A DNA stretch of 64,000 nt from assembly GCF_963514075.1 (NCBI RefSeq), contig NC_083761.1, positions 49,797,777 to 49,861,776 on the forward strand. Reading direction: 5' to 3'. A program made the position numbers and the translations under genes. This document shows, piece by piece, positions 1,522 to 63,901 of this stretch; the first letter of the stretch is position 1; each line of letters opens with the position of its first letter. Source of the stretch: Conger conger. Taxonomy: Eukaryota. The notes below the pieces were generated by a model. That model searched no databases and was not told the origin of the DNA. It was given only the letters and a program-made list of their open reading frames with translations.

Positions 1522-1648
1522 GGTGTCAGTCTGCGATGAGGACAAGCTGACCCACAACGAGTTTATAGGGGAGTCACGGGTGGCACTGCGTCGTGTGAAG
1601 CCAGACCAGACCAAACACTACAACATTTGCCTTGAGCACCCACCTCCG
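1522..1648 (+). CDS. doc2a: Double C2 domain protein (Doc2/rabphilin family), coding exon for the end of C2A; translation ...[40 protein letters not shown]. Earlier exons lie upstream of the window.
   Basis: Acceptor 'ctcgcag' at 1519-1521 and donor 'gtaaaag' at 1649. The peptide matches the Doc2 C2A consensus CDEDK..HNEFIGE..NICLE. Confidence 0.75.
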
Positions 1649-1949
1649 GTAAAAGAGAGGGACTGTGCATTGACATTCCTTTGTTCAGCCATAACAATTA
1701 CAAACTGGAAAGGTGTGGCTGTCAAGCAAACACACCATAGCCTTATTGTATGCTTACATTATTACTACCTACACATTCCTCATGCTTGTCATTGTAGGTT
1801 GTAGATAGAGCTCTTCAATGCCTCCAATAAGAATCTTGATCCCAGTACTCTTCGGTTTAGCCTATGGGGATGTCTGCCAAGTAGCGAGATAAATGAACAA
1901 AGGAACTCACTTGCCCCCACTCTCTTGTCCTTCCTTCTCTCTTCCTCAG

Positions 1950-2009
1950 CTGCCCTCCCCCTCCGCTATGAGTGCAGCACTCAGAGGGATCTCTTGCTAC
2001 CTGAAAGAG
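1950..2009 (+). CDS. doc2a: doc2a coding exon (linker); translation LPSPSAMSAALRGISCYLKE
   Basis: Acceptor 'cttcctcag' and donor 'gtaacag'. The peptide matches the Doc2 inter-C2 linker motif MSAALRGISCYLKE. Phase-0 exon of 60 nt. Confidence 0.75.
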
Positions 2010-2320
2010 GTAACAGTCTCATCCCCTTCTCACAAAACCTGCCTGTTTGTCTACGCTTTGGGTCTTTCCCATTCATGTCTGTGTGCCTGCATCTTTACGC
2101 CTCTCTACACACCTGTTCCTGTTTTTATTTTTGGCTCGCTGCCTGTTTGTCTGTGTGTCTTTCTGCATCTGATCTGATCCCATGGGGTCTGTATATGTAT
2201 TTATGTACTAAAAACAAGTCTGAGAAATATCTTCATGCTTAAATTTAAATATTTGGACACAATTAAATTTACTGAAGGTAAGAATGCATCAGATTCCAAT
2301 ATTTTTACAAATTAATTACC

Positions 2321-2335
2321 GGGGGGGGGGGGGGG
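2321..2335. repeat. poly-G homopolymer followed by a GC-rich stretch
   Basis: g15 run seen directly in the sequence. Confidence 0.9.
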
Positions 2336-2675
2336 CGCGGGACGGATACCCAGCACCCGGTGGGGAGAGGGGGTTCATGTAAGCTGTTAGCAAAATAGCG
2401 ATTAGCAAATTCACCATGCATACCGCGTAGTCCATGCAAGACTGATGGACAATTTATTTACAAGCAACAACACTGTAGTGACTTCTAAGAGAATGACAAC
2501 TTTATGGGAAAAGCAACTTGTTGGCCAAAACAATGCGTATGTTACAAATGACAGATTTCCCGACTCGATCACTGGGCTAGGAGTTTGCAATTCATTGCTT
2601 CAGACGAAAACTACACAAAGTTTAACCATACTAGAGGCTAGCTAGCTAGCTAATAATCATGCATCGCTATTGGAG

Positions 2676-2925
2676 GTGACATTGGCTCAGGAGGTGAGAG
2701 CAGTGGTCTGGCAGTCGGAGGGTTGCCAGTTCAATCCTGGGTTTGATCCTGGGTGTGTCGAAGTGTCCGTGAGCAAGACACCTAACCCCCAATTGCTCCT
2801 GACTTGCTGGTTGGTTCCTTGCATGGCAGCCATTTGCCGTTGGTGTGTGAATGGGTGAATGAGAAGTATAAATTGTACAGCGCTTTGGACAAAGACACAA
2901 TACAAATGCAGACTATTTATCATTT
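2676..2925 (+). repeat. tRNA-derived SINE (family B); head 'ggctcaggaggtgagagcagtggtctggcagtcggagggttgccagttcaatcc', tail '...gtgaatgagaagtataaattgtacagcgctttggacaaagac'
   Basis: Three copies share more than 85% identity (2676, 45455, 56258). A/B-box-like motifs are present. Confidence 0.8.
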
Positions 2926-3039
2926 TACAAAAATATTTACTTGTAAACACCTTGAATTTAGCTTTCTTAAAACACTCAAAAGCTACAGGGGCGCTGGGCA
3001 GTCAATATGCTCAAATCTCGGTTAAAGGTACTTCATTAC

Positions 3040-6307: not shown

Positions 6308-6311
<4 letters not shown>

Positions 6312-6822: not shown

Positions 6823-7125
<303 letters not shown>

Positions 7126-7768: not shown

Positions 7769-7963
<195 letters not shown>

Positions 7964-8020: not shown

Positions 8021-8464
<444 letters not shown>

Positions 8465-8491: not shown

Positions 8492-8650
<159 letters not shown>

Positions 8651-8949
8651 CATGGCCAAAGGCACTGTATGACTTTCATAGGCAGGACAGCTGATGAGCA
8701 TGAAACAAAATACATTTTGGACTGGTAGGGCAATCTGTACAGGGATTCATTTTATGTCATCATAGTAGAGTGCAATCTTTGTATTGTGCATCCTACCCCA
8801 TAACCATTCAATCCTATTGCTTATGGGTTTTTCTTTATTCAACTTCTTGCATCTCGCAACTCCCCTCACTATCTAGTCATTTATCTTTCTCTCACATGCA
8901 ATAATATATGATTGAACAATGCTTCCAAAATAATACTAAGTGGTCTTAA

Positions 8950-9538
8950 AATTACATACAGTCCCTTCCAAAAGTATTGGGACAGCAAGGCCCAATTCTT
9001 TTGTTTTTGCTATACACTGAATACATTTGGGGTTGAGATAAAAAATAAATAAATAATGAACACGAGACAAGAGAATTTAATTTCAGTTTTTATTTCCTGG
9101 TATTTGCACCTAGATGTGTTAAAATACTTAGAACGTAGTACCTTTGGTATCAGACCACCCAATTTTTAGCTGAGCAAAAGTATTGGAACAGAGTATTTAA
9201 GTAATGAAAGTAAATAACACCTAATATTTGGTAGCATATCCCTTGCGACTCATTGGAATTACCTTCTGTTGCATTCTTCTTTTGTGATGCTATTCCACAC
9301 TTTGACTTCAGCCTCTTGCATGCTCAATTGGGTTAATTGGGTGGTCTGATACAAAAGGTAATATGTTCTAAGTTGTTTAACAAATCTATTAAAAAAGGAA
9401 GCAGGAAATAAAAGCTGAAATTCAGATCTGTCACCTCATGTATATCATTTGACCCCAAACTGTATAGTGTATAGCAAAAACAAAGGAATTGACCTTGCTG
9501 TTCCAATACTTTTGGAGGGGACTGTATATCATTATTAA
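8950..9538. mobile_element. Non-autonomous Tc1/mariner element with roughly 40-bp terminal inverted repeats
   Basis: Left end 'tacatacagtcccttccaaaagtattgggacagcaaggcc' is the reverse complement of the right end 'gaccttgctgttccaatacttttggaggggactgtatat'. There is no intact transposase ORF. Confidence 0.7.
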
Positions 9539-12500
9539 TACAGATTACCATCAACAGCTGCCCATATTTGGTAATCTGTTTATTAATAATAACAATTATA
9601 AAAAATGTGTTCTTCCATGTTGAGTGTTTCTGTGTGAAATCTTGAAAAATAAATTTGCATGTTAAAATATTATAACTGTTTTTATGTCTCCCGATTCCCT
9701 GCTCCCTGCTGATGTACACATTCTCTTTGGATCAGGTTGTGAGCACACCCCCACAATGTGTTTTGCACATTGTTAGCCGTGTACACACCACTATGTGTTT
9801 TGATAGCCTCTGTATTCCTGTCATGTCAGATAAACTTCTTAGGACTCGTCAAAAGAAAATGAAGTGACATCTGTGACAGTTTATCCAGGCTTGCATACAA
9901 TGGTTTTGAGAAGTCTCCGCTAATTTGTTATTCAATTTTCTAAATAGTCATGACATGTATTATGTTTTATGCACAAGACATTGTGGGAAGTAATTCAAAC
10001 CTATTTTGCCGTGATTACCTCCCCTGTTATCCTCTTCTCTCCGTTTTTCAGTTCTGATTGCTTGCACTATTGTTCCCCGTATTGGTGTAAATATGACATA
10101 TTAATAGATTTCTGATTTATACGTTTCGTTATGTAATATTCTATTATTTCTTAATGCTAGCATTTTTATATAGGTAGCAAAATATTAATCTTCACAGAAT
10201 ATTGTCATTTATTTATTATTTATTCAGGTATTGATTTTCTTATTGATAACAGACATTTTAATGTGAACTGCAGTTCTTATGCTGTGCCTGTACAGAGAGA
10301 GGGGTGCTTTTTTCAGTGTCAGTGGAGTATGTTGTTCTTCAGTGATGTTACTGTATTGTGTCTCTCAATCTGGCTGTGTCACTGCCCCGACTAAACAGCA
10401 TGTCTGATTGTATGAGTGTGAATTTATAATGTTGAATAAGTGTTCCTATTGCTATGGTTTGTTCTGTTCCTGCAGGGGTGCAAGGAAAAGGATCATGTTT
10501 ATATTTATATCAGGTATTTATGTACATTATCAAATACATTTGGAATGCAATAACCTTGCTATAAATTCTGTGTGTGATTACTCTGACCACTATGGCAGCA
10601 ATATAAAACAGGAATGACTTTAAACCATGATCTTCCCCTTTAAACCAAAGGAAACAGGAACATGAATAATAATGATTGGGTAAACAAAAATATCCTGAAT
10701 TTTAAATAATATTATTCTAACTCCATGGCAGGACTACAGACACTATTATTATATCTGGTACAATTATCAACATGAATAGTTGTTATGTAAGAGGAAAGAA
10801 AATGGTAGAACCATGTTGTTCTGAGCCATCAGTTCAATGATGATGATGATCATTATTATTGTTATTATTAGATATAAGTCATTTAGATGTATTTGTCCTG
10901 GGCATATGGCTGATACACATAACAATACAAAAGTACAAAACAATAACAACAAGCTACAGTAGTCATTTATCATAATGCAACCACAGGACTAAAAGTAGCA
11001 CAATCATTAAATATTAAAAACCTGTCACTCCACGTCATCCTCCCTACAATGGACTCCCACAGAGAGACTCCCTTTGTAAATGGGAGTTTGTGAATGAGGG
11101 TCAAAAGGCGTACCCGAGGCAACTCTCTTGGACCATGGACCTTAAATCTAAGATATACAGTGCAGTGCTTAAGCACGTGGACAGCGACACAATTCTTGTT
11201 AGTTTTTTTCCAGCACGTTGGATTTGAACTGATGCAATGAATATGAGGTTATGAGGTTATGTGCATTTCGCCAGCTTAAATTTGAGGGTAATTACATCCA
11301 TATTGGGTCATACATGTATACAAATTACAGCCATTTCCATACACAATTGTCCAAGGATTTATTTTTATATACAATAAAGTACAGATAAAAATACAATAAA
11401 ATACAGTACAGAGAAAAAACAATTTTATTGTCTCAATATTTATATTGACTATTAACTTCAATCTGCAAGAAAATACAAGGGGTGGTGCTTTACTATTCAT
11501 CTGTAAAATAAACTACAACAAACAGCTGTGAACAATGAATAATTATTCATCGGTTTGATATCGGCATAGTTTTAGGCTACGCACACTGACCAGTGGGAAG
11601 TGAGGTTAGTTGTATTGGATGTTTAATGATGATGTGAACATGAACAATATGAAAGCGAAAAAGGGATGGAAATGCAAAATGGTCTCAGTTTGAAAATGAA
11701 TATTTTGGCTATATCCAACCTCATACAATCAGATGTGTTTAGTAAAACAGCAGCTTTACAGGAACCCATCAATGATCTCCAGTCATTATATGCAGTTCTG
11801 ATTATTTCCAATTGTACAGTTAACAGAAAGTGAATCAGTACAGGTGCCATTTCTTTACATAATATGGTACAGAAGCTACAGCACTGCAGGTTAAAAAGAT
11901 GACATAACCAAGCATAAAGTAACCAAAATTCTCCATTATCCGTAACCCTGATACTATTCAGATTCCTTTCAAAATGTCCAGGTAGATTGAAAACCACTGA
12001 CTTTGCAATGACTATCCTGTAAGCAGAAAAGTATTGTATTATGAATTGTGATTCATTAAATGATCCTGTAATAGCCTTGTCTCAATCTCACAACACACTC
12101 ATGCACATACAGGTGCAAAATCAATACATGTTCCCTACCCAGGTTAAGTGTATAGGCTCCAATGACCCATAGAAAGACCCGGCATGCTAGGTGAAACTCA
12201 CAGCTCTAATATAAACCGATGTCTGGTAGTGTTTAAGCAGACGGGTGAATTCACACGGTACAGTGATAAGCTTATCCAGAATCCTTATGAGGAAAAGGGT
12301 GTACAGGGTGAACAAACAGCAGCATAGGATTGAAGAATTTAATTACAGGCTTTCCCCTTCACAGACACATAATTATTTGCAATGTCCTGCATCTCAGTAT
12401 TAATCAGATTGGCATTCACTTCAAGTTTAATTAGATAAGCTTGCATAGTGTGGAGAACACCATCAATGTGAGCCTCCTGCAATGGTTCAGTGGGCAAAGG

Positions 12501-16924: not shown

Positions 16925-17000
16925 CAATATTTAATTGCATTACATTACATTAATGGCATTTGGCAGACACTCTTATCCAGAGCGACGTACAACAAAGTGC
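16925..17000 (-). repeat. SINE family C tail fragment ('cattacattacattaatggcatttggcagacactcttatccagagcgacgtacaacaaagtgcaaagtgc')
   Basis: This is the reverse complement of the tail shared by 24378-24597, 42470-42550 and 57330-57452. Confidence 0.7.
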
Positions 17001-18959
17001 AAAGTGCATACCTATAACCAGGGATAAATGCGTAGAAAGACCCTAGAGGGAAGTACAATTTTGACAGCTACCTGTACAACAAAGATAAGGACCAGTGCCT
17101 ATTTGATCATCAGATTAAAAAAAACAACAACATTTTTTAAAATAGTAATAGCACAACACGCAAATGTATGATTTTCAAATAGTTTCAGAAAAAGATGGTA
17201 TTTCCTTTTAAATTAATTTGTATTTAAATTGTATTTATCATACAGGCTATGACATCAAATTAGTTCATTTGATCATATCAGTGCATTCATTGCTGTAAAC
17301 ATTCAGTTTATTGATCATACAATAAAGTAATCTGAAGAAAAATAAACAAAAATCCTTACGTTCTTATAAAATTGAAGAGACTAACAAATTTAGCATGTTT
17401 TTTCTAAAATCAGTCTGGTTCATCTTCCCTCAAGAAGACTAGGATGACTGTCACAGCCTCCTCCATGCATTAGTACTCCAGAATTGCGGTGACAGAGTCT
17501 CCAGGCTGCATGACAGACTTTTAAGAAGGGTGCATTTTGCTCTAGGTGACAGTATGTCCAGGAGAAGTGAAAAGATATGACATGGGTCACATAGTACAGT
17601 TTAATGAAAGGAAGTTAAAGAAAGGAAGGAAAGGAAACAGCACAGATTCTGCTCAGGATGAAAGATCTGAATGTGAATTGAATTATGGATTAAAAATAAA
17701 GTTAAAGTTGAAATTGATTCCACTGAAGCTAAATTCAACCAGAAAGAAAAAATGGACAAATGTATACTGCCATCTAGTGAACAGAATGCACACTGATAAT
17801 CTGCAACCAATTTCTTTATTGTCGCAGATCAATATTGTTAAACTGGTCTGTTTAAAATAAAATAAAATAAAATATAATGTGTGGCATGAGGTTACTTTTA
17901 GGGATTTCATTACATTATATTAAATTCATTTTGTAAACAACAATATTCCCAGACCAGCAAGTTTGTATGTAACATTACATCACTAAAGCACGAGTGCAAG
18001 TTAACTTCGTACTAACTATGTAGTACAAATTCTGAATGTGCTGCATGTAGACTCAAGGGGCCTGGGCTTGCCATTCTCGGAGAAACTCACAAACTCCAGT
18101 GGTAACTCGAGGTATTGCAGTTTTGTAAGCCTCTGGTGCCAAAAAGCACATTTGCCCATTGAAGTACATTCAAAGCTATACATTTACCCTGGCCAAAATA
18201 TATTACTTTTTTCACACTGAATTAATTAATCTCCAGCAATCAATTTATTTTCTGAGCAATACAGAAGAAGATGTTTCATTTGGTCCGCATGGTTTTACAT
18301 TACACTGCACTCACCTGTTCAATTAAAACAAGACAGTTGGTTGGAAAAAAAATACCAGTGCACAGACCTGCCCTCGAGGACCAAAGTTGTGCATGCTTGG
18401 TATAAATACATAGAGTGTGAGCACCTATTATCGACCAGCTACGCACGATAAACAGAAAAACGCTATTTACAACTATGTATAAAAAAATAGGCAAACTGGT
18501 GTTAACACCCTATACCTAGTTATGTAGAAGAAAATTTCCTTTTTATCTTCTGGAGTTAATTTACTTCTTTACTTCCTTATTTTTTTGTCGGATGCAAAAT
18601 ACATAGGATGTCACCATGCTAGCCCATTAGCCGCTAAGGGGACGTTTATCAACCACCCAGGGGACATGTACCGACCACCAGGTAATTTTTGCTAAAAATA
18701 AAGCCACTCTAAGCTATAAAAGGTGGTTTGCATTCAACTGTATGATATTTTAGCTTGCAAAAAATATGTAAATGATTGCAGTTACTCACCAGTTTATTTT
18801 GTAACATCATCACCTGTACCTTGTGGAAAACACCTGAATCTGATTAGGTACACGTAGGCTGCATTTACAACACCCAGCCCAAAGTTTTTCTCATCTACCT
18901 GCATTATATGGATTGAATAACTAAAAGAAATGGTAAAGGCATTGATCATAATCTTTATA

Positions 18960-45705: not shown

Positions 45706-45979
45706 TGCCGCAACAGCCCCATCGCTTGGCGGCCCGGGTAATTCAGGATATTAGAACAACATGCCTTCTCCCGCGACTGTAATTCCGAGTGTAATCAGAG
45801 CTCAATTGTATACGGAGATCCTACAGCCCCTCCTCCTACCCTTGGATCGGCGAGCCAATTATGCAGGTCCTTGTGAGCCGGCCAACCTCGGCTTTGCAGG
45901 GGCCTCGGTGTGCAACTATAATGAACTGATGCCTGCATCAAAGTCTGTTGCCTTAGGAGTCCAAGCCATCCACACGAGG

Positions 45980-47230: not shown

Positions 47231-50200
47231 TATACCCTATATTTATATTTTAAAAAATAGTAAAAAAGAAAATAACATAAAAACTTTATGGATTTGATGC
47301 TTTTCGCCTGTTGAGGAACTTGGATTGGATTAAAAGTGTCTAATGACTAAAATGTAAATGTATATTCTTTATAATGGACAAAAAGCATTTTATTAATTTT
47401 CAATGAGTGGTTTTGTGAATGAAAAGATTCCCTCTTTCCCACTTGGAAATGATGCAGAAGTGAGATTCATGAGTCAAAACTGTTGATTTGTAGTAAAATA
47501 TATGAATATTTTATTATTTACAACAATGCACCATTTATGGATTTGGAGACACTAAGGGATTTTTAGTATTGCTTTGCAAAATAAGCACCTTTTTGCATTT
47601 TTTCCTACATACAGTAGGTTTTGTATTTGTAGCATGTTATTTATACCCAAATTGTAAAAAATAAACTAAATTAAGATAGGATTATTGAAAAGTGTCATCA
47701 TAAAAGCCATTTATCAAGTCTGGATGGCGGGTCAGTCACAGGGCGTTCCCACAGCTCGGGTTGCCTGCAGTTTCAGGTGGTTAGACAACTTCCCAGAAGC
47801 TTTCTAACCACCAACCTCAATTACTGGAGCTGTCTGAGTGCTGTAAATCTGGGGCACCGTGGCAGAGCTGTGGACCCACCTGGAGCTTCCAGTCAGTCGT
47901 GTTGGAGCCCTACAAAATTTAAAACTTGGTAAAAGCATATTCAAATTTTTTTGTAAGACGACTCCTATTTTATTTATTTTTTGTTTGTTTTAGGTCCCCT
48001 CCACACCCTACATGTGTTTACAGATGGCTTTGCAGATCTGAAGCTAAAATGATGCCAGTACAGTGCTGTACTGTATTGGCCTGTGCTCCAGGGCACAACA
48101 GCTATGCCTGGTCCCGCCTGCAAAAGCTTCTGATTTTGGTTTGAAACTATGACATGAGACCAGCATCCTGTCTTTACCTCAGTACGCTGTATTACCTCTT
48201 TCGGCTCCATCAAAGAAAACAGGCCCTTGTATCCTCTGACATAATTCAGTATAACTTGAGATAATTAATTAATCAGTTAAGTGCTCTTTCATACAATAAT
48301 GCGATCTCATATCCTCTATTTGGTTGAGTTTCAATTTTACCAGGATTGTGCTAGCCAGTAAAATGAGGTAAGGATCTTGTATTGGGGAGTAGGCTTGGAG
48401 ATTCATTAAAATTTACAAAATATATTGCTACCATGAAATCTCTTTCTTTGGCAGAAGTCTTTCTCCCTTGAGAGTTCCTTGCTCCTCCCCATCTCTCCAC
48501 TCTCTACTGCATTATGACAATAATTTCTCCCTTCCTTGTTTTCTATCCCCAGCCCCAGAGCCCATACTCCACGGTTCTTTTGCAGGCTGAACTGGGAGAT
48601 GTCCTGTGGTCTGAAGTCTGTGTCTGCATACAGCAAACATTTTCTGACATTTAACATATGCCAGGACAGATGTGTCTGCTACTGTCCAGAGCATAGGTAC
48701 AAAAATATCTACCCACAACCAATTCATCCCTTCCTCCCTTGCTCTTTCAACCACTCCTAATTATAAACATTCTCCACCTCCTTTACCCCATCTCTGTAGC
48801 CATTTTCCTTCAGCTTAAATGAAAGAATATTTAAATAATTCACATCCTTTAAAAATTTAAATAAAACAATTTTTCTCTCCTCACCGAGTAGTCATGCTTC
48901 TTCATTTCTGTTACTATGCCTCTCCCTGCCAACTGTTCCCTTAGCAACCAATACATTGGAGATGCACACACACACACACTGGAGATGCAGAACAGCCTGA
49001 ATTCTTCACGGCATGAATTCAACAAGGTACTTGAAACACACCTTAGGGATTTTAGTCCATGCTAACTTAACATGACACAGTTGCTGCAGATTTTTTTGAC
49101 CACATTCATGCTGTGAACCATGCTGTGAACCACCTCCAAAGGTGCTCTATTGGATTGAGATCTGGGGACTGTGCCGGTCATTGGAGTAAAGTGAAGTCAT
49201 TGCCTTGTTCGGGTGAAAGGCTTGGGATGATTTGGCACATTATCCTGCTGGAAGTATCCATTTGAAAAAATGGTAGACTGGGGCCATAAAGGGGTGCATG
49301 AGGTGAGCAACAATGTATGGTATGCCGTGGCAAATGATGCTCAACTGCTATATTAAAAGTATACTATGCATGATGATTTTTAGTCTTGCTCCAGGCCTGT
49401 GTTTACAATCAAAGTCTTCTCCTCCATCCTCAACCCCTGCCCTACTGACCTCTGTTTTTATATTTTATATCCATTTTTACATCTCCTTTTCTTGATGGCT
49501 GTCAAGGAAAAGCAATTCCCAGGTTGACTGGATTTTTGAATGAGCCCTGTGACCTTTCGCTTAACTGTACTTGTGCTTCTTCACTTCCGCCATTGCAGTA
49601 GCTAGCCAGCTACGAAAGCTCCGCTGAGACCTCTGCACCCCACAGACTCTGTAGCAACACCCACCACACCAAAAGAGTCACACCCAGAAACATCTCTAAC
49701 ACACCTTCAAATGAGAAATACAGGCAGAGGAGAATGGATTTGGCAAATGAGTACAAACATAGAGATTACCAGTGCATGACTGAGCATGGTTATTCTATAT
49801 TATTTTCATTTAAACATTCTACATAATAAGCCTGTCCGGGAGACTCAAGGCAGGATTGACCCATGGATTCATGCTGTTTATACCCATTTCTCACCCTACC
49901 ATCTGCCTGTAACAGCAGACATCTAGATTTGTTAGACCAGGTGACCTTTTCTGAATTCTCACAAATTCACAAATGTGCTGTACAGCCATTGCAAAGCTGC
50001 CAGATCATGAAAAGTTCTGTAAATCCTTCACTGCACACCTAAATTCAACACAGTCTGAGCCAATCAAAACCATACACTAAAACTGGAATAATATATATTT
50101 TAAAACCCAGAAGGTGAATTATCACTTTAAAATCTCACTGAAAATTGCAAAAGCAAGAATTGAGAGAGCAAGTGTTTTCAAGCATGTTATAGTTGCCCAA

Positions 50201-52091
50201 GGAGGAGTTACAAAGTACTAACTGACAGGGCTCCCAAACTTTTGCACAGGGCTTTTTCATTTTTTTATTATCAAGAAACTGGAAAAAATGTAATGTTTAA
50301 CTTTTGACCATTTAGAGGTTAGGTTTGTTTCTGTTCACTTAGTAATTGTTTTACAATTAATATCTATTTAATAAAATAAATCCCTTTTTGACCAGGGGTG
50401 CCCACATTTTTGCACACCACTGTAATTATTCAGCAATAAGTCATAATTTCCAATAAAACCAGTGTAAACATAAGTTAGCAAATGAACTCCAGTTTCACAT
50501 TGTTCCACCACAACAAACAGTGATAAGTTGTACTCATTTTATTGACAAGCTACACTACTTTCAGTTTACGAAATAACAAGCAAGTAAAAAGTAAGAGACA
50601 TAAAACTGCCTACCTAACAAGGGAACATCTTCTTACTGTAGTATCTTCCTGTGCCCCTGTTGGGGATGTAAACATATCCAGAGTATCAACACAGAATCCT
50701 TGATGAATAATAAGTACCCCATTTAAACAGATACTCACAATGTCTTTACTACAAGTCCAAACTCCAAACTTATAATAGTGTGTCATTTCCATTGGTTTAA
50801 TTTTTGCCTATGCACAATTAACAGTCAGATTCACAATTCGAAGTGTTAAACCTTAAAGTGATACACATAAAAAATTTAAATATTTTTTCCAGCAATATAT
50901 CAGAGAAAGCTGGTTATACATATCAGTATTTGTAGCCTGCCTCAAAAAACAGATCATTCACAGGAAGAGGAGTGAAATAGCGTCACATGCAGCAGTTTCT
51001 TAAGTGGGTCAGAGTGAAGAAGGTACTCATCTCCACCTCCTATTTTTTTTACATGCTAACTGAAAACAGCACCCATGTAATCGTCACAGTGTTTTTAAGA
51101 CAGAATCAGAACAATATTCAAAGAACTTGGCTATACTTGCACCTACCAGCCATTAGATGTCTGAGGTGCAGATATACATTTGGTAAGTGCACTGTAGTGC
51201 TGAGTAGCACTGTAACACTGCAGCATGTCAGTCAATTCATCTTTATAAATGGGCTCAACAATAAAACACTAGTGAGCATGTATTCTAAAACATAACTAAA
51301 TGTTGGAAACATACAGTATATTCAGAGTTCTGATAGAGATTGGTGTCTGCTGCACTCAGTATGTGTTGGTGTGTATACGCTATGCAGTTTTTTTGAACAC
51401 ATGCACAGCTCTGCAACTAGCCAGGTCTAGACCTTTAAATATTTTTGGTGAATACTTTTCATATCATGGCGAGTTCTTGTCATGTTAGTATAAGGGTTAG
51501 ATCAATTTAAATTGTTGAAATAATGTAGTAAAATGGAAATACCATACATTTCCATTTTGCTAAATAAAAGTACCACATTCTGAAGAAAGTCTCATTTAGT
51601 TTGATACAGGCATTCTGTTTATACAATCCCATTTTGAAACACACTCCCAATTTGACACAAGGTTGATATTGGAGTCTTGAGCTGATACAGGACAACATAT
51701 TTTCTTTTCAGATATTTAGCATTGGATAATGCAAAATTATATTATATTATGCAGGTCTTTGCTTGTCATCAGTTCCTTGTTCTATCCAATTTTCCATCAT
51801 GGCACATGGGGTCATATGTGAAGTCTCTAGTCCTGGACTGAGTACAACACAGCTTGGTGTCACCGAGGCTCTTCAGTCACGCTGATTCAACAGATGCCTT
51901 GATCTACATTAGTGTGAATTTCAGGTTCTCATTACCACCCCACTCCCCACCCAACAACAAAAACAAACAAAAAAAATAAATAGTTAGACTGCTTTTCTAC
52001 GGTGGCGGTCTGATCTTCTGGGTCACCAAATGCAAACATGATAGAGAGAAAAGTGACTTCTGAGAGATGGGTGATTACTGGAATGTTGTAA

Positions 52092-52379
52092 TCAGCACTT
52101 CCTTAAATCCTGGTCTGCGCTGAGGGAGATGATCAGGATTTCAGTTGAACTGAAACAGAGGGGAAAGCTGTATTTAATCATTTTTAATGTATAGCGCATG
52201 TAGAAAGTAAAACCCTGAAAGGTTTCATAAAACATCATGAATGGACACTCACGCCCCCAGCAGACCATGCAGACAATGATGATGACTCCTCCCACCAGTG
52301 AGACCACAGAAAGAAGCTTGGCCACCCGGCCCAGACGTCGCGCCCCATCCACATTACCCTGCTCCAGACTGTTCCTGGA
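52092..52379 (-). CDS. prrt2: prrt2-like (CD225/dispanin) terminal coding exon: [42 protein letters not shown]… (second TM helix). The conserved part ends near 52254. The true stop, or any further splice, is uncertain, and the ORF reads through to 52092.
   Basis: Acceptor 'cttcttctctcag|TCCAGG' (exon start 52379), phase 0. The peptide matches the PRRT2/TRARG1 C-terminal consensus SRNSLQQGD.DGA.RLGR.AKLLSI..L.GG. Confidence 0.6.
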
Positions 52380-52982: not shown

Positions 52983-53590
52983 TATTTACACCCCCCCTCC
53001 CTCCATTTTAGGGGACCAAAAGTAATAGGACAAATAAATATAATCTTAAATAAATTTGTCCCAGAACTATACTTTTTCAAATGTAGTTTTTAGCAAACTC
53101 TAACCTGGCTGTTTTGATCCTGTTTGTTTGTTCTTCTGGGGTCTACCAGATTGTTTGCTACTCCTGAGATCACCAATACATTCCTGCTTCTTCACAACAC
53201 ACTACACAGTTAATTCTGACACACGCAATGTTTTGCCTTTGTCTCCGATTGATTTATTCTGATTCGTCCACCCCAAGATGGCCTGCTTTACTGGCACTGA
53301 TACTTCATTGGTGCTCATGTTGAGAGACAAAGCAAACTCAAAAGACCACTCCTAGAATCAACTCTAATTGAACTAATGATGCAACCGCACACAGCTGGCC
53401 AAGAAACAGCTGAGCAGCCAAGCTTTGCTTCCCAAAAATGGGGGGGGACTATGTACAATTCCTACATGCTTAATTAAAGCTGACATTCTGTACTTTATCC
53501 CCATATTCATTCATTTCAAACCCATTGTGCAGGAGTACAGAGCAAAAACAAAAATTGTCCCTGTCCAAATACTTATGGACTGCATTGCAT
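52983..53590. mobile_element. Tc1/mariner-like non-autonomous element in prrt2-like intron 1
   Basis: Termini '...gggaccaaaagtaatagg...' and '...ccctgtccaaatacttatggactgca' resemble Tc1 inverted repeats, as in 8950-9538. Confidence 0.4.
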
Positions 53591-53924: not shown

Positions 53925-54315
53925 GGTGGAAGCAAAGGTTCTGGCTTTTCCTCTGTAAATGGTTTGGTTTCTTCTGTTGCTGAACAGGAGCACATATCAA
54001 ACAAAGAAATAAAGTATAACAAAATAATATAGCTTAATATTAAGCATTTATTTATTGTATTCTTCATTTTTTGGTAACAGAAAAAGATAGGCCCATTGAA
54101 TTTACTGTATATAAATACGTATCCTCTACCACAGTGCCATTAGAGCAATGCCTCACCTGGGCTTCACACCCATGACATTCTGGTCACAGTTGTGGTGCTC
54201 TGATATTTATCGTGGCTATTCAATCTCGCATTCACATAATTGTGTAGAAAAGGAGCATTTCATTATTAGAAGAGCGTACAGTGATCGCGTAATTGTAATG
54301 CAATATGCATATTGC

Positions 54316-54318
<3 letters not shown>

Positions 54319-54349
<31 letters not shown>
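54319..54349. repeat. (GA)n microsatellite
   Basis: Seen directly in the sequence. Confidence 0.95.
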
Positions 54350-54351
<2 letters not shown>

Positions 54352-55164
54352 ACAGGGTGTGTGCCATTGTGATGAAAATAGCTTAAAATAATAATAATCC
54401 TGTAACCATACAGCTAACGTGTAAATAAACTCCCATTCCGTTCAAAAGAGCTGCATTCGTTAAAGAACACAGCGTGTGTCTGTCATTTACACAGATCATT
54501 TACACAGATACATGCAAACTACAATTAAACCATTCAAAACAAGATAACACACACGCAGGTAGTGACACACCCACATTTGACACACGCGTTTTAACTTGCA
54601 GAACAAAATGTTTTTCAAATAAACCTCCAAAGATCTACACAACCTACCTTATTCTATGAATGCCAATCCTGAAAACATCCGAATAGAGTCAAATGCCAGA
54701 CACCTGAAAGCATCTCAAAAGGCAGTAAACGAATCCAAAACTAATTTAGGAAAAATAAAAAACTTGTTTCAAAAATCGCAATATAAAATAAAGACCAGCT
54801 ATCTGGACGTCCCCATATAAGCTACACAATATCAGAATTCTCTTTGTTCATAGCCGATCCACACGACGCGTAGGAAAGCGCTTTCCCTTTCTTTACCACT
54901 GTGTTGCTGTGGTAAGGGCGTGAGTGGAAAGGGAGGGGGAACACGAAAGAAAGAAAGGAGGGTGATTCTAAATTAATTTGACGTGGAGACGGGGTAGGTG
55001 AGGTAGTGGCTGCAGTGAGATGAGCGATTTTTCACAGGGTCTTTCTTTTGCTGATACAGCAGGGACATCCTTCTGCCTTGTTTCTCGGAGCTGCCGCGAG
55101 GTTTGCTGCCATCGAAATCGCTCTGCATCCCCACTTTTCATGCCACACACTGCATCATGCTCCC

Positions 55165-55192
55165 GTTCAGAATAAATAAATAAATAAATAAA
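55165..55192. repeat. (TAAA)n microsatellite
   Basis: Seen directly in the sequence. Confidence 0.9.
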
Positions 55193-56257
55193 TAACCGTA
55201 AAAGTTTTGTTGAACCAGGGCGTTCCTTAGTCTGCACATATATGCTATCACTTACCTGTTTAAGGGATTAAATACCTAGTTTTATTCCAACAAAATAATT
55301 GGTCATGCACGCAGTGTTTCGAATCATGCGTAGGCTACATAGCTCGGCAATCGACTGTTGTCCACACAGGTAAGCAGCCGAGCTACTATATGTGTGGACG
55401 CTTTTGGTCTGTCCACTGGCATATTACGCACATTACTAACATTTGGAATTATCCCACTTACTACGCACGTGGACCTACACCCGAGCAGGGGATGGTTTTC
55501 AGTTATATTAAAACCATGACAGATATACCATAATTTAACGCCGCCGTATGGACAGCAACCGTCTCCACACATGACAGCAAAACAGGTGTTGACAGGAACA
55601 TAGCCTAGGCTACTTGGAGTTTCTAGTTGTCCGTTATAGTTACGGTAATAACAAATATAGCATAAAAAGCACAATAGATGTCAATTATAGATATAAATAT
55701 CACTTATTTTTACATTAGATATTGCATACCATCTGGGTATGCAGGAAAATTACATCATCGCCTGGACTTATACGGGGCTACTCTGATTCACAAAAAGTAC
55801 CACAATGATACTTTCACGTAAAAACAATTACACTAATTGGGTAATTATTTGATTTGTGTTGCAAACAATGTCCGACCAATTTGTGTTGTGTTGCCCATGG
55901 TGCTACCATCAACATACAGGAAATAAATGACATTAAACATTCGATCACTATATGCATTTCTTTTACTTTTCCTCACAATAGAGATTGTGAAGGTAACGTG
56001 AATGATTTTAACGAATTTTAAAAGGGGATAAAAAAAAAAAAAGAGAAATCATTAAGCTCTCTAATTTGTGGAAGAATAGTAGTACCATGTTACCCAATGA
56101 AAGACAATACATTTTTAATACAAATCTCTTTCTCAGCTGGTTTGCAAAGGTTAACAAAGAATCACTCAATCAGGGCAGCGGATAAATTTGTATTTATTAT
56201 GCATTCAAATAAATTATTTCCACTACTAGGTCAGCTTGTTGACATGAGCCAGTATAG

Positions 56258-56460
56258 AAGCGACAATGGCTCAGGTGGTAAGAGCAGTTGCCTGGCAGTC
56301 GGAGGGTTGCTGGTTCAAATCCCCAATACCCCCAAATGCTCCTGATGAGCTGGTTGGTACCTTGCATGGCAGCCAATCGCTGTTGGTGTGAGTGGGTGAA
56401 TGAGAAGCATCAATAGTACAGTGCTTTGGATAAAGGCGCCATCTAAAATCCAACCATTTA
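56258..56460 (+). repeat. tRNA-derived SINE (family B) copy
   Basis: 'ggctcaggtggtaagagcagttgcctggcagtcggagggttgctggttcaaatcc...gtgaatgagaagcatcaatagtacagtgctttggataaaggcgcc' aligns with 2676-2925. Confidence 0.8.
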
Positions 56461-57329
56461 GAACACATTTCTTGGCTAAATGGCTTCAAGACATCAAGGG
56501 TCCAAGGTATCAAATGAGCCTCATGCTGTTGTCAGATATGGATGGACATGGATTGTTTCTCCGGAATCATTTTTCCATTGGGTTCAGTCGGACAATTATT
56601 CAGAATTCTGGCCCACTATGTAAACAACAAGGACCGTGGCTGTGATGTCTTCCACCATTCCAGAGTACCCTGGCCTCTGCCACAAGGTCCCTCAATCTCA
56701 TCGCCCCACCAGAGGACTTAAAAAAATCAGGGGCAATGGAAATCCTGTGTGTGGTGTGCACTTGTAAGTCGCTTGCACTTGTAAATCGCTTTGGATTAAA
56801 AGCGTCTGCTTATTTATTAAACCAGACATAAATGGGAACCAGGGGCCTCATTTATAAACGTTGCGTAGGCACAAAAGAATGCGTACGCCACTTTCTAAGC
56901 AAACTTTGGCATTTATAAAAAACGAACTTGACGGGAAAATGTGCGGTCCTCCACGGAAACTCTGACCCATGCGTACGTACATTAACTGGAGAAATGAGAA
57001 ACTGTGCCTTTAATGCTCGTGACGTAAGACCAGGAAAATGGGAAGTGAAACAGGATTTTAAAAGGTATAAAGATTTGCCGGGAGTTGTGGCTGGGTATGG
57101 CTGCTGTAAGGACGTGCTTCGTCCCTGTTATACTTATTAAAGTGTTGTGTTGTTGAATCTCGCTATACGGGTTCTCTCCCTTCCTAAGTGCAACACATTT
57201 GGCGACGAGAGAAGTCGCCAAAGAATGATATACAACAGATACCACTGTGTAAAATAAATCGAAATTGATTGTTGTTGATTGTACTCTTAAAGGGTTCTGA
57301 TTTTCTGCATGTTTACACTAGGACTCGGA

Positions 57330-57452
57330 ACTATACTGTCCTCTCAGGTCCTCTTTGCACTTGTTCTTGTGTTTAATTTGCACTTTGTTGTACGTCGCTC
57401 TGGATAAGAGCGTCTGTTAAATGCCATGTAATGTAATGTAATGTAATGAAAT
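57330..57452 (+). repeat. SINE family C tail fragment ending in (taatg)n-like 'atgtaatgtaatgtaatgtaatg'
   Basis: '...gcactttgttgtacgtcgctctggataagagcgtctgttaaatgccatgtaatgtaatg...'. Confidence 0.7.
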
Positions 57453-57848
57453 ATTACCTCTCACGTATCATATACGAAGAGTTAATTTGCAAAAACGGAT
57501 AAAAGCCTCTCTTACAACGAATAAACAAACACCTGTTTGATTGATGCTCCCTGGAGTGCCTAAAAAATATGATTTAGGATAAATATAAACGGAGATGTTG
57601 TAAAATAATCCCTCAAATATGTAGACGAAAATAGAGAAAATATCCAGAACTCCTGACAAATGAACAGGTCCAATTTCTACAAAAAGAGTTTTATTTTAAA
57701 ATGTTAAAAGCAAGTGATTAAAAAAAAAAAACGTAAAATACTGCAGTAGAACACAGCATACATTTGTCACAAGAGTCAAACAATGGGCCCCACTCAAGTA
57801 CTACTGGGTTAGTTGGCCAATATTACATGGGTACAACTAAAAGGTTCT

Positions 57849-57916
57849 CCCCACACCCACACCCACACCCACACCCACACCCACACCCACACCCACACCC
57901 ACACCCACACCCACAC
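57849..57916. repeat. (CCCACA)n hexanucleotide microsatellite, about 11 units, lying in the kif22-like 3' UTR a few bp downstream of its stop codon
   Basis: Seen directly in the sequence. Confidence 0.95.
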
Positions 57917-57922
57917 ACTCTC

Positions 57923-59956: not shown

Positions 59957-61678
59957 CTACAGGGGTGTGAAAGTGTTTGCCGCCCCCCCCCTTCCTGATT
60001 TCTTATTTTTTTTTTGCATGTTTGTCACACTTAAATGTTTCAGATCAAACAAATTTAAATTAGTCAGACAACATTTGTATTATTAACCTCCTAAGACCTG
60101 GCGTACACATGCGTGGACTCCACATTATGGGCTGTACAACCATAATACTTAATTCTTAAGACCGAGAGTCCACATATGTGGACATCATTTTTCTCAAAAA
60201 CTACATCATGTCAAAAGATGATGCTTAGTTTTTATACTTATCAGGTCCCAATAAGCCCAAATAGCAAAGAGAAATTAAAAATGCATACCAAAAAAAGAGT
60301 GCGGGTCTTAGGAGGTTAAGGGAGAAACAAAATCCAAACCTACATGGCCCTGTGTGAAAAGGTGATTGCCCCCTAAACCTAATAACTGGTTGGGCCACCC
60401 TTAGCAGCAACAACTGCAATCAAGCGTTTGCGATAACTTGCAATGAATCTCTTACAGCGCTGTGGAGGAATTTTGGCCCACTCATCTTTGCAGAATTGTT
60501 GTAATTCAGCCACATTGGAGGGTTTTCGAGCATATACCGCCTTTTTAAGGTCATGCCACAGATCTCAATAGGATTCAGGTCAGGACTTTTACTAGGCCAC
60601 TTTTTCTTCAGCCATTCAGAGGTGGACTTGCGGGTGTGTTTTGGATCATTGTCCTGCTACAGAACCCAAGTTCGTTTCAGCTTGAGGTCACGAACAGATG
60701 GCCGGACATTCTCCTTCAGGATTATTTGGTAGACAGCAGAATTCATGGTTCCATTTATCACAGCAAGTCTTCCAGGTCCTGAAGCAGCAAAACAGCCCCA
60801 GACCATCACACTACCACCACCATATTTTACTTACTTATGTTACTTTTACGCCAGATGTAATGGGACACACCTTCCAAAAAGTTCAACTTTTGTCTCGTCA
60901 GACCACAGAGTATTTTTCCAAAAGTCTTGGGGAACATCAAGATGTTTTCTGGCAAAATTGAGACGAGCCTTAATGTTCTTTTTGCTCAGTAGTGGTTTTC
61001 GCCTTGGAACTCTGCCATGCAGGCCATTTTTGCCCAGTCTCTTTCTTATGGTGGAGTCATGAACACTGACCTTAACTGAGGCAAGTGAGGCCTGCAGTTC
61101 TTTGGATGTTGTTGTGCGGTCTTTTGTGACCTCTTGGATGAGTCGTCGCTGCGCTCTTGGGGTAATTTTGGTCGGCCGGCCACTCCTGGGAAGGTTCACC
61201 ACTGTTCCATGTTTTCGCCATTTGTGGATAATGGCTCTCACTGTGGTTCGCTGGAGTCCCAAAGCTTTAGAAATGGCTTTATAACCTTTTCCAGACAGAT
61301 AGATCTCAATTACTTTCTCATTTGTTCCCGAATTTCTTTAGATCTCGGCATGATGTCTAGCTTTTGAGGATCATTTGGTCCACTTCACTTTGTCAGGCAG
61401 GTCCTATTGAAGTGATTTCTTGATTGAGAACAGGTGTGGCAGTGTGCCACAGTTAAGTTTTAACAGGGGGGGGCAATCACTTTTTCACACAGGGCCATGT
61501 AGGTTTGGATTTTTTTTTCTCCCTTAATAAAAACCTTCATTTAACTGCATTTTGTGTTTACTTGTGTTGTCTGACTAATATTTAAATTTGTTTGATGATC
61601 TGAAACATTTAAGTGTGACAAACATGCAAAAAAAATAAGAAATCAGGAAGGGGGCAAACACTTTCACACCACTGTATA
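59957..61678 (-). mobile_element. Tc1-family DNA transposon, near full length, with terminal inverted repeats (TAcaggggtgtgaaagtgtttgcc … ggcaaacactttcacaccactgTA). The transposase gene on the - strand is interrupted by frameshifts (N-terminal 138-aa ORF 60846-61262).
   Basis: Inverted termini seen at 59958-59985 and 61655-61678. The ORF encodes the Tc1 HTH region (…RSGRPTKITPRAQRRLIQEVTKDRTTTSKELQASL…KHLDVPQDFWKNTLWSDETKVELFG…). The downstream DDE region is in other frames. Confidence 0.8.
60087..60315. mobile_element. piggyBac-like MITE of 229 bp with TIRs 'cctcctaagacc…ggtcttaggagg', flanked by a TTAA target-site duplication (60083-60086 and 60316-60319), inserted into the left TIR region of the Tc1 element
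   Basis: Comparison with the uninterrupted opposite Tc1 end (…ttattaagggagaaa…) shows that exactly TTAA is duplicated on both sides of the insertion. The insertion has perfect 12-bp inverted termini. Confidence 0.65.
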
Positions 61679-62066
61679 TCTTTCCATCAGTGACTTGATA
61701 TGCAATATGCATTAACTAAATGCTAAACATAGAAAATGGAGACACGATACTGTAATTTGTGAAACGTAAATGAGTTGACGGGGTTGTATACAAAGGCACA
61801 TGCATGATATGGAGGTAAAACATTTCTCATTCTGAAATTGTCCAGTTGACACAAACCCATTAAATACGCTTACAATAAACGAGTTCAAACTGCTGTGGCT
61901 TCAATGATCATAAATGGCACCAAACTATTCTATTCAGATCAGATAAAGTTGTTAGTATTGACTGTAAAGCTAGTGCTATGGGAGGGAGGTCACCACAAAA
62001 AACACGAAATTCAGAGTGCCGTACAGCAGAGAAGCACTGTAGAGTGACCGAGTTGGATTACACACC

Positions 62067-62291
62067 CTGTAGAGGCGACACCACTGCCTGTTGTCTCTTT
62101 GGCTTGGCAGCAGTTGATGGCTTCCTGTATAGGGGAGGCAAATTGGTGCGAAACATCCCTGTGTCCTTCAGGGCCTCCACACCCTTCTTGGAGTGTATTA
62201 CCACGTCTTGACCTTGTTCCTTTTGGTCCGCTGGGAATGGATTGCAAGCTTGTGCCTTCTTCTCCAGCTCCTTCTGTTTCTCTTTAAGTTT
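62067..62291 (-). CDS. kif22: kif22-like coding exon: KLKEKQKELEKKAQACNPFPADQKEQGQDVVIHSKKGVEALKDTGMFRTNLPPLYRKPSTAAKPKRQQAVVSPLQ (coiled-coil tail)
   Basis: Acceptor 'ctgtctctgcag|AAACTT' and donor 'CAG|GTGTGT'. Collinear with human KIF22 …LKTKQKELEAKMLAQ…AKPLKKAVVMPLQ. Confidence 0.65.
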
Positions 62292-62541
62292 CTGCAGAGA
62301 CAGTGCCATGATTTTGACGACAGCATTTTAAAGGTGACCGTGAGAACATCCGTTGATAGACTGGAGACAAAATTATACTTCGGCATGCACTACATTTTGC
62401 AATTTGCTTTAATTTTAGAACTGGTAATGGTTAAAAAAAAAAAAAAGATTTATCACAGAAGTCACAGAAATGACAGAAAGTCCAAGTTCTCGCTTTGTTC
62501 CCATAGACTATGCATGCAGTATGTATACTTTATTACTGTAC

Positions 62542-62662
62542 CTGAATCTCTTTGCGGGACTGGGCAACAGTCTTCAGCAAGTTGAGTCTCTCTCTCTCTG
62601 GGGATCCCATCATCATCTTCTCCAGTGCTAGCAGCCTGCTCAATACTGAGGAGCCAGCAGGG
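62542..62662 (-). CDS. kif22: kif22-like coding exon: (S)PAGSSVLSRLLALEKMMMGSPERERLNLLKTVAQSRKEIQ
   Basis: Acceptor 'ctctcccttag|C' (phase 2) and donor 'CAG|GTACAG'. Matches KIF22 …[24 protein letters not shown]. Confidence 0.6.
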
Positions 62663-62904
62663 CTAAGGGAGAGAGGGGAGTGGTCATTACAGAGCGCACA
62701 CGACAAATTACTGCACAATACAGCACATGGATGCAAAAGTTTTAATGATGGCCATCTCTCCTCCCACAGTGCTGGATCAAAAACGACAGAGCCAGGACTG
62801 AGGAGTAGGGACACTGCTTTCTGGCAGCAGAAGCTACGTGTGGCCACAACCTTGTAGTGACAGAAGAGGGCGACACACATTACATGGACTGTGTTCCAGT
62901 TCAG

Positions 62905-63300
62905 AAAGACTGCAAAATTAATTAATTAATTCATTCATTCTCCTAACCCGCTTATCCTAAACAGGGCCGCAGGGGGGCTGGAGCCTATCCCAGCATACAT
63001 TGGGTGAAAGGCAGGAATACACCCTGGACAGGTCGCCAGTCCATTGCAGGGCACACACACCATTCACTCACACACTCATACCTATGGGCAATTTAGACTC
63101 TCCAATCAGCCTAACCTGCATGTCTTTGGACTGTGGGAGGAAACCGGAGTACCTGGAGGAAACCCACGCAGACACGGGGAGAACATGCAAACTCCACAAA
63201 GAGAGGCCCTGGCCGACAGGGATTCGAACCCAGCACCTCCTTGCTGTGAGACGTCAGTGCTACCGACTGCACCATCCGTGCCGCCCGACTGCAAAATTGA
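62905..63300 (-). repeat. tRNA-derived SINE (family A), full-length copy including the 3' tail ('…ggataagcgggttaggagaatgaatgaattaattaa' on the - strand)
   Basis: 63036-63295 is about 95% identical to 1-240. The tail at 62905-63035 is the reverse complement of the typical family-A 3' region '…gccctgcgatgggctggcgacctgtccagggtgtattcctgcctttcacccaatgtatgctgggataggctccagc…'. Confidence 0.85.
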
Positions 63301-63777
63301 CCAGGGGAAATAAAGTACTCCGTGTGGAAGAGTAGGGGTGTCCAAATCCGATAACATTCAATACTGGCCAATAGCAATACTCATGTTTCTTGTCTTTTAA
63401 AAATTATTCAACAGCTAGCCTACAAACAAATGCCCAGCTTGGCTTAAAAGCAGTGCCACAATTCTAAGGCAGCAAGCAAGATAGGTCTAAGCTTAAGCAA
63501 CTGGTTTCATAAACAGCATCATTTGCAGTGGAGAATACAGTGCTTGTTCTGGAGCGACGGGGCATTCTGAAAACTGAAAGTACGGAGAAGCTTCGCTACC
63601 GGCCAGAATTCATATGCATCTTATAGCGTCAGAGAGGATCAGGTTCAGATTAGCGCGCATCCCTGCTGATACCCGGTCATTCAAATACGATGGTATCGGG
63701 AGCGGATACCGATCCTTTGATCGGATCAGTGTATCCCTATAAAAGACTGCAGTGAATGTGAAAGAAGAGACTTATAC

Positions 63778-63901
63778 CTGTGTGGCTGTGCAGGCTCAGA
63801 GCTTTCCTCTTGTTCTTCAGGCTGCTTCTCCTTGAACCTCTTCTTCTGGGGCTGAGTTGCTGCTTCATGACCCTGTTCCTGCCTGCCTCTCTTCCCGGAT
63901 A
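63778..63901 (-). CDS. kif22: Possible further upstream kif22-like coding exon: …SGKRGRQEQGHEAATQPQKKRFKEKQPEEQEESSEPAQPH(S)
   Basis: An open frame bounded by the acceptor 'tgtatcttag|TA' and the donor 'CACAG|GTATAAG'. The phase joins exon 62662. No direct homology support beyond its lysine/glutamate-rich character. Confidence 0.35.

Follow-up and report, generated by a model that had tools for sequence, protein, structure and literature searches.

The closest described counterpart of the locus treated here is the human 16p11.2 BP4-BP5 region, where the genes follow one another as KIF22-MAZ-PRRT2-PAGR1-MVP-CDIPT-SEZ6L2-ASPHD1-KCTD13-TMEM219-TAOK2-HIRIP3-INO80E-DOC2A, an established order with about ten genes between PRRT2 and DOC2A (order of the table in PMC11211608). 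In zebrafish the homologues of these genes lie in clusters on chromosomes 3 and 12, a paralogous pair that reflects genome duplication, and the regions were judged not syntenic with human save for two small groups; a doc2a-prrt2-kif22 linkage was not reported there (Blaker-Lee et al. 2012, PMC3484866). We have analyzed a 64-kb stretch of the genome of Conger conger (the window hereafter, meaning always the whole stretch, with strands given as they lie on it) that carries members of the same gene set, but as a tight triple: doc2a (+), prrt2 (-) and kif22 (-). These are the same three genes as in human, with KIF22 and PRRT2 in the same order on one strand. The window differs from the human region in lacking MAZ between kif22 and prrt2 as well as the roughly ten genes found between PRRT2 and DOC2A, and its spacer between doc2a and prrt2 holds two C2H2 zinc-finger (ZNF) genes that have no human counterpart in that interval.

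Our reading, to which we give a probability of about 0.78, is that the window carries one of the two copies of a 16p11.2-like block left by the teleost genome duplication, and that its long spacer is a normal intergenic expansion within conserved microsynteny. Three genes of a single human block of about 27 genes fall within 64 kb, far beyond chance, and their order recurs in other teleosts. An earlier reading of the window from its letters alone (the sequence-only reading) had already placed doc2a-like, prrt2-like and kif22-like genes here, and all three were found at the positions and on the strands it gave. Much of the rest of that reading also stood, namely the orthology of the genes, their order and strands, their linkage, the absence of MAZ and a spacer rich in transposable elements (TEs). 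Its views that the spacer is an inserted island, that it is lineage-specific and that its zinc-finger genes are of the FiNZ type were not borne out.

The gene with C2 domains is an orthologue of DOC2A and not of DOC2B, as had been proposed. Its exons within the window code for the end of C2A, a linker of DOC2A type and the whole of C2B (Pfam C2, E=6e-31), up to a TAA stop at 8648-8650. The 5' half of the gene, to which the N-terminal Munc13-interacting region and the rest of C2A belong, lies upstream of the window; position 1522, where the sequence-only reading began the gene, is the exact first exon boundary. Every top database match bears the name DOC2A, and identity reaches 94% in Synaphobranchus and 93% in Scleropages and Paramormyrops. 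It falls to about 71-73% in tetrapod DOC2A and to 64-71% in DOC2B. In the neighbour-joining (NJ) tree the split between DOC2B and the rest was recovered in all the bootstraps (50/50), with the conger gene on the DOC2A side, in a group that takes in sturgeon, bichir and tetrapods. There the window falls within one of two teleost doc2a clades, the nearest non-teleosts being Acipenser and Polypterus DOC2A. The linker between the C2 domains points the same way: the exon at 1950-2009 encodes LPSPSAMSAALRGISCYLKE, and the DOC2A-type motif (…PSPS.MSAALRGISCYLKE…) is shared by the window gene with the DOC2A of primates and of sturgeon, and is lacking in the DOC2B of Megalops and Lemmus. Cypriniform doc2a lies in the other teleost clade of the same tree, so that cyprinids may have kept the other copy.

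We also noticed in the conger gene an in-frame acidic insert of about 20 aa at the start of C2B (6985-7045, within the exon 6925-7124). It is found as well in Synaphobranchus and in one isoform of Paramormyrops, and is missing in a Scleropages sequence and in the DOC2A of tetrapods. Use of an alternative donor, or an extension of the exon, possibly explains it, conserved in early-branching teleosts.

The coding sequence of prrt2 is complete, down to a last exon of 17 nt that ends in TAA, and its product carries at the C-terminus the CD225/dispanin domain that is expected of PRRT2 (Pfam CD225, E=4.4e-24, residues 153-219). Since close teleost relatives are often named 'trafficking regulator of GLUT4 1' by NCBI, the paralogy between PRRT2 and TRARG1 was tested directly. 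The CD225 domain was extracted from the representatives of clusters at 50% identity and a NJ tree was built, in which PRRT2 and TRARG1 were anchored by names obtained through exact look-up and TMEM233 was without an explicit anchor; representatives from Marmota and Hypanus that are named PRRT2 fell below the coverage filter of the tree. TRARG1 was split from the rest in 98/100 bootstraps. On its side were Cynocephalus, Erinaceus, birds, Scleropages trarg1a and the trarg1b of Fundulus and Ctenopharyngodon, and the conger gene was placed on the other side, along with the genes of gar and bowfin and the PRRT2 sequences of Dromiciops, Caretta, Gopherus and Polypterus. Teleosts formed two PRRT2-type clades, and the window gene belongs to the one that we call 'a'. 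It is accordingly a co-orthologue of PRRT2 and not TRARG1, which agrees with the choice of prrt2 over trarg1 in the sequence-only reading.

The names in the databases deserve a comment. The 'a' copy of teleost prrt2 is often labelled by NCBI 'trafficking regulator of GLUT4 1' or 'tumor suppressor candidate 5'. The true fish trarg1a and trarg1b are genes distinct from it, and the prrt2 copies of Lates calcarifer carry both names. Judged from the tree, the TRARG1/TUSC5 naming of the 'a' copy is a systematic misannotation. Two further observations concern the structure of the gene. The GenBank model COCON_G00031340 has an extra upstream exon (MQSDFDGSKPRGSSEKQ…) at 54961-55128 (-) that is not in RefSeq; the segment 54366-55645 upstream of prrt2 is 72% identical to the corresponding region of Anguilla, and being conserved it may contain a 5' exon of prrt2 or its promoter. 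Within intron 1, the segments 53129-53234 and 53369-53421 give short matches of 79-89% about 7 kb downstream of Synaphobranchus doc2a (locus L005, 32219-33055), where there are no prrt2 exons. These segments are single in the window and absent from Anguilla, and the match could be either a small shared TE or the relic of a lost prrt2a of Synaphobranchus.

The third gene is represented in the window by its stalk and tail, ending at a stop codon at 57925-57923, and the motor domain lies outside. The assembled tail matches the helix-hairpin-helix (HhH) structure of human KIF22 (PDB 2EDU, E=1.7e-14, residues 183-241 of the tail), and a search with it gave 11 matches, every named one of them KIF22 and none a Conger protein. 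In the second Conger assembly (GCA_029692045.1) the model that holds these exons is a protein of 645 aa with the Pfam domains Kinesin, Microtub_bd and HHH_3. The homology and the domain content both identify this kinesin as KIF22, as had been suggested.

Gene order in other fishes was compared over 10 kb beyond each reference gene. The triple recurs in Syngnathus typhle as doc2a(+), prrt2(-), kif22(-), in the order and orientation of the window and with a gap of 16 bp between the models of doc2a and prrt2, and in Dallia pectoralis as pagr1(-), kif22(+), prrt2(+), ZNF(+), doc2a(-), all inside 23 kb, so that one more gene of the human region, pagr1, is also part of the Dallia block. This recurrence is what a check of gene order in other teleosts had been expected to give. 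Between the stop codons of doc2a and prrt2 Conger has 43.5 kb, Syngnathus about 5 kb and Dallia about 10 kb. The order kif22 to prrt2 on one strand was also found in three Anguilla assemblies, Megalops cyprinoides and Chanos, and in the window prrt2 likewise adjoins kif22 on the same strand, across a gap of 4.0 kb, as an orthologue of PRRT2 should. The likeness to human KIF22-(MAZ)-PRRT2 ... DOC2A in order and shared strand thus holds; human DOC2A is on the strand opposite to KIF22 and PRRT2, as doc2a is in the window. In Megalops atlanticus kif22 lies directly upstream of the 'b' paralogue of prrt2 too. With kif22 upstream of both Megalops paralogues, the kif22-prrt2 pair would predate the teleost duplication, and from its presence in human, in several teleost lineages and at both paralogous loci of Megalops we infer that this linkage is ancestral. 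The adjacency of doc2a and prrt2 is another matter. As about ten genes lie between PRRT2 and DOC2A in human, their tail-to-tail position would be a derived fish arrangement and not an ancient one.

Some side observations on the same neighbourhood can be added. In Megalops there are two copies of kif22, of 647 and 631 aa, and behind each of them lies a separate copy of prrt2; both members of the pair would therefore have survived the teleost genome duplication in tarpons. In Silurus asotus a single model of 871 aa fuses KIF22 (motor and HhH) with PRRT2 (CD225), and a PRRT2 isoform X1 of the squirrel family clusters with PAGR1 proteins. We regard both as read-through models, which betray the adjacency of the genes.

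No exon resembling MAZ, a six-finger gene, had been seen between prrt2 and kif22, and a specific search gave the same result: tblastn with the MAZ exons of Brienomyrus found nothing in 53.9-57.9 kb, and elsewhere in the window only generic finger matches to the two zinc-finger genes of the spacer, ZNF1 and ZNF2. The possibility that one of these is a displaced MAZ was discarded, their similarity to it being of the generic finger kind (30-36%). In Brienomyrus the gene directly upstream of prrt2 is a zinc-finger gene of 482 aa whose exons are unmistakably MAZ. Hence we infer that MAZ was lost between kif22 and prrt2 in the conger lineage and in most of the lineages sampled, and kept in Brienomyrus.

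The spacer between doc2a and prrt2 contains two intact two-exon C2H2 genes, a Penelope-like element, a Tc1 remnant, a remnant of LINE reverse transcriptase (RT) and several families of short interspersed elements (SINEs). The sequence-only reading described it as holding only fast-evolving content. This goes too far, as the two ends of the spacer, 8651-11303 and 47722-52132, are conserved with other eels; within the latter, 48432-48978 is conserved in Megalops too. These flanks, about 7 kb of the spacer, are probably long 3'UTRs. The TE-rich core, 11.3-47.7 kb, gave no alignment to the available flanks of other eels, the 10-kb flanks of Anguilla and Synaphobranchus ending before it. In our proposal, the tail-to-tail doc2a/prrt2 order would be the fish arrangement, with the ten or so intervening human genes lying elsewhere, and the original spacer would have contained one two-exon C2H2 gene on the strand of prrt2. 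The growth of the spacer to 43.5 kb in the conger lineage would be due to an old tandem duplication of this gene and to a continuing accumulation of SINEs, LINE fragments, Tc1 and a young Penelope-like element. Conservation would have been retained in the long flanks 3' of doc2a and of prrt2. No special mechanism would be needed for such an expansion.

The zinc-finger genes of the spacer, ZNF1 and ZNF2, are both intact. Their products have 398 aa (XP_061086789.1, 'zinc finger protein 502-like [Conger conger]') and 407 aa (XP_061086786.1), and both genes are on the Conger chromosome record of 89.85 Mb. Each begins with an exon of 190 nt with a phase-1 donor, which encodes an N-terminal domain of 63 aa (MTKIQILNSYLTERLMVAVQEILEMV…) that is amphipathic, resembles a leucine zipper and has no match in Pfam. 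In this exon the two are 63% identical at the amino acid level, and ZNF2 is best described as a putative old tandem paralogue of ZNF1. Pfam recognized zf-C2H2 in both products and no KRAB, SCAN or other N-terminal domain. The label FiNZ that they had been given does not apply. FiNZ is a Glu-rich domain of 28 aa (PMC10547256), FiNZ-ZNFs are 'unique to cyprinid fish' (PMC10547256; PMC11603059) and the host here is an anguilliform; the eel genes have a different N-terminal exon, of 63 aa, which we have set apart from FiNZ by its description only. The likeness to the cyprinid FiNZ-ZNF genes (Wells et al. 2023, PMC10547256) and to KRAB-ZNF clusters is in the two-exon layout, a short effector-like N-terminal exon followed by a C2H2 array in the last exon, and in the TE-rich neighbourhood. 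However, the eel arrays are short (4 and 5 fingers) and at least one copy appears to be conserved in position and not rapidly turning over.

This last point comes from two other fishes. The gene between prrt2 and doc2a in Dallia, which was considered as a candidate ino80e and turned out to be a ZNF, is on the strand of prrt2 and has a phase-1 first exon (MTKLQLLNSLL…) and three terminal fingers. These are in register with the last three of ZNF1 (57%, E=3e-31) up to the stop codon, with several of the base-contacting positions shared, and the similarity is about 40% out of register or to ZNF2. At the paralogous locus of Megalops a 190-nt phase-1 first exon, 67% identical to that of ZNF1, was found on the strand of prrt2b and 8.2 kb beyond it, on its downstream side, and the second exon of this gene resembles the linker region of ZNF2. 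The simplest view, which we hold to be somewhat more likely than not, is that the ZNF downstream of prrt2 is an old resident of the spacer, duplicated in tandem in the conger lineage and lost in Syngnathus. More tentatively, with odds a little short of even, this gene may have kept its place immediately downstream of prrt2, in the same orientation, from a time that precedes the teleost duplication, and so be present in the 'a' block (Conger, Dallia) and in the 'b' block (Megalops). If so, this gene of three to five fingers would be an unrecognized conserved member of the fish 16p11.2-like neighbourhood and not a fast-evolving TE repressor, and it could have its regulatory landscape in common with its neuronal neighbours prrt2 and doc2a.

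Several readings of the locus compete with the one preferred here. One would make it a counterpart of the human 17p13.3 paralogon (DOC2B ... TRARG1), with doc2b and trarg1, in place of 16p11.2. The two regions are alike in linking a gene with two C2 domains to a dispanin-B gene, which is the source of the confusion over the TRARG1 name, and many close teleost matches of the CD225 gene do bear the names TRARG1 or TUSC5, its loop motif being as close to TRARG1 as to mammalian PRRT2. Nevertheless, by phylogeny both genes of the window are in clades of the 16p11.2 type: true TRARG1, trarg1a and trarg1b form a group of their own (98/100) and the C2 gene goes with DOC2A (50/50). Besides, kif22 adjoins prrt2 as in human 16p11.2, pagr1, another gene of that region, flanks kif22 in Dallia, and KIF22 is not known to have a counterpart in 17p13.3. 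We consider this alternative effectively refuted. A second one, which was the view of the sequence-only reading, sees in the spacer a lineage-specific accessory island of fast-evolving ZNFs and TEs inserted between directly linked doc2a and prrt2-kif22 of an ancient linkage group. It fits the abutting doc2a and prrt2 models of Syngnathus, without a ZNF between them, the core that does not align with the available eel flanks and the young TEs found in it. But the adjacency that such an island would have interrupted is specific to fishes, about ten genes occupying the interval in human (PMC11211608), and the spacer is better described as an existing intergenic region (already about 5 kb in Syngnathus and 10 kb in Dallia) enlarged by TEs. 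Nor does it look specific to one lineage: in Dallia (Esociformes) and at the kif22b-prrt2b locus of Megalops, the prrt2 copy is likewise followed on its own strand by a two-exon phase-1 ZNF of this family. About 7 kb of the spacer are conserved flank, and the comparison with Anguilla and Synaphobranchus covered its ends. An inserted island seems to us improbable.

The ZNF downstream of prrt2 in Conger, Dallia and the second Megalops locus (Megalops-B) could also be a coincidence, or the outcome of repeated independent insertion of a mobile and expanding family. The similarities are mixed, with the Megalops-B exon 1 nearer to ZNF1 and its linker matching ZNF2 only, and the 10 kb beyond prrt2 that were searched in Syngnathus, Chanos, Brienomyrus, Anguilla and the first Megalops locus (Megalops-A) contained no ZNF. 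Yet the three genes share their strand relative to prrt2 and their intron phase, lie at similar distances (3.6-8.2 kb downstream of prrt2), and ZNF1 resembles the Dallia gene finger by finger to the stop codon, including several base-contacting positions. Independent arrival is in our opinion doubtful, though far less so than an origin from 17p13.3. The preferred reading, of a duplicated 16p11.2-like block with an old ZNF in an expanded spacer, has its own difficulties. Both gene trees are NJ trees on short alignments (94 and 233 columns). A search of the 10 kb beyond prrt2 in Anguilla, Megalops and Brienomyrus gave no doc2a exons, and around gar prrt2 no neighbour was called within 10 kb. Nor is the triple universal, since Chanos prrt2 is followed by an ArfGAP-PH gene and not by doc2a. 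The long residence of the ZNF is argued from position, strand, exon structure and local identities of 57% or 67%, for a family with this N-terminal domain that is presumably abundant in teleosts, and the spacer of Syngnathus has no such gene. All these points weigh against it. The converse search, for prrt2 exons within 10 kb downstream of Synaphobranchus doc2a, found none.

The origin of the DNA itself is clear. The products of prrt2, ZNF1 and ZNF2 match Conger conger RefSeq proteins exactly, and over 42.5-63.5 kb the identity to the second, independent Conger assembly is 97-99.8%. Two matches to UnaL2, a family first described in eels, were found in the window with Rfam RF00436 (59.2 and 58.3 bits, above the gathering score). 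The exact proteins, the second assembly and the eel-type UnaL2 identify the window as annotated European conger DNA. The locus is real, correctly placed and made of the ordinary content of an already annotated genome, the sole modestly new point being the positionally conserved ZNF. The analysis confirms doc2a, prrt2 and kif22 of the eel as true orthologues of genes from the 16p11.2 region of copy-number variation in human, and it makes their triple a compact and reusable teleost microsynteny marker. It also illustrates that a conserved block tolerates a roughly tenfold growth of one spacer through mobile elements; beyond such housekeeping the significance is slight. The coordinates of the features are collected in Table 1.

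Table 1. Features of the 64-kb Conger conger window, in order along it.
Feature	Position	Strand	Evidence or content
doc2a, last six coding exons	1522-1648, 1950-2009, 6925-7124, 7795-7876, 8306-8402, 8514-8650	+	Splicing with canonical AG/GT sites
doc2a 3' flank	8651-11303	+	About 77% nt identity just downstream of Synaphobranchus kaupii doc2a (locus L005, 25716-27517)
SINE/LINE tail with eel UnaL2 3' element	16926-17041	-	Rfam RF00436; self-BLAST relatives at 24535-24591, 42441-42542, 57377-57455
Degenerate Tc1/mariner transposase remnant	18968-19629	+	Pfam DDE_3 E=5e-7, ORF fragments
ZNF1, intact two-exon C2H2 gene	Exon 1 33264-33075, exon 2 31420-30414	-	Four C-terminal fingers
Penelope-like retroelement	35141-38965	+	RT and GIY-YIG ORFs broken by frameshifts; direct repeats
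ZNF2, intact two-exon C2H2 gene	Exon 1 44114-43925, exon 2 41205-40172	-	Five C-terminal fingers
Frameshifted LINE reverse-transcriptase remnant	45925-47250	+	ORF fragments with RT motifs; RVT_1 E=1.2e-3, below cut-off
prrt2 3' flank	47722-52132	-	69-78% nt identity, collinear with the 10 kb that follow prrt2 in three Anguilla assemblies
prrt2 (teleost 'a' copy), complete CDS, four exons	53924-53676, 52768-52472, 52379-52254/3, 52149-52133	-	100% identity to RefSeq 'proline-rich transmembrane protein 2-like [Conger conger]'
prrt2-kif22 intergenic region, 4.0 kb	53925-57922	.	No MAZ; conserved prrt2 upstream segment 54366-55645, SINEs, (GT)n run
kif22 stalk and tail exons	63920-57923 overall: near 63.9 kb, 62673-62539, 62201-62067, 59859-59776, 58438-~58200, 58138-58079, 57952-57923	-	Exon homology to Megalops, Dallia and Chanos kif22
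Tc1/mariner element in kif22 intron	59958-61676	-	Pfam HTH_Tnp_Tc3_2 E=1.6e-26, HTH_SB, DDE_3

Among the mobile elements, the Penelope-like copy has the order RT to GIY-YIG and the direct pseudo-LTR repeats that are typical of its class. The repeats, of 189 bp (35141-35329 and 38779-38965), are 96.8% identical. Its domains scored below the Pfam cut-off (RVT_1 E=1.9e-4, GIY-YIG E=6.3e-4), and the YIDD and GIY-YIG motifs were seen in the open reading frames (ORFs); a homologue was found in the gar locus (E=3.5e-31). With its frameshifted ORFs this copy is probably dead. The Tc1 element of the kif22 intron is bounded by terminal inverted repeats at 59958-60073 and 61676-61565. A tRNA scan of the window found nothing and an Rfam scan returned UnaL2 tails only. 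Two open frames of the spacer, 25919-26311 (-) of 131 aa and 27763-28284 (-) of 174 aa, had no Pfam match and are probably TE-derived or chance ORFs.

Comparison of the two Conger assemblies suggests that some of these families have moved recently. The second assembly has a SINE of about 357 bp (locus L001, 17891-18247) at window position ~47223-47236 that is absent from the window and is 93.6% identical to the SINE at 62929-63286, and such a difference in insertion argues for recent TE activity. An overlap of about 14 bp at its junctions suggests a target-site duplication. Further indels between the assemblies, near 61445 (about 1.2 kb), in 57.6-57.9 kb and at 56809 (about 260 bp), point to recent TE activity or to haplotype differences. 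Finally, at opposite ends of the window, the intron of doc2a (4-245) and that of kif22 (63047-63288) contain the same SINE with 95% identity; its family appears to be young and active, a related copy being polymorphic between the Conger assemblies.

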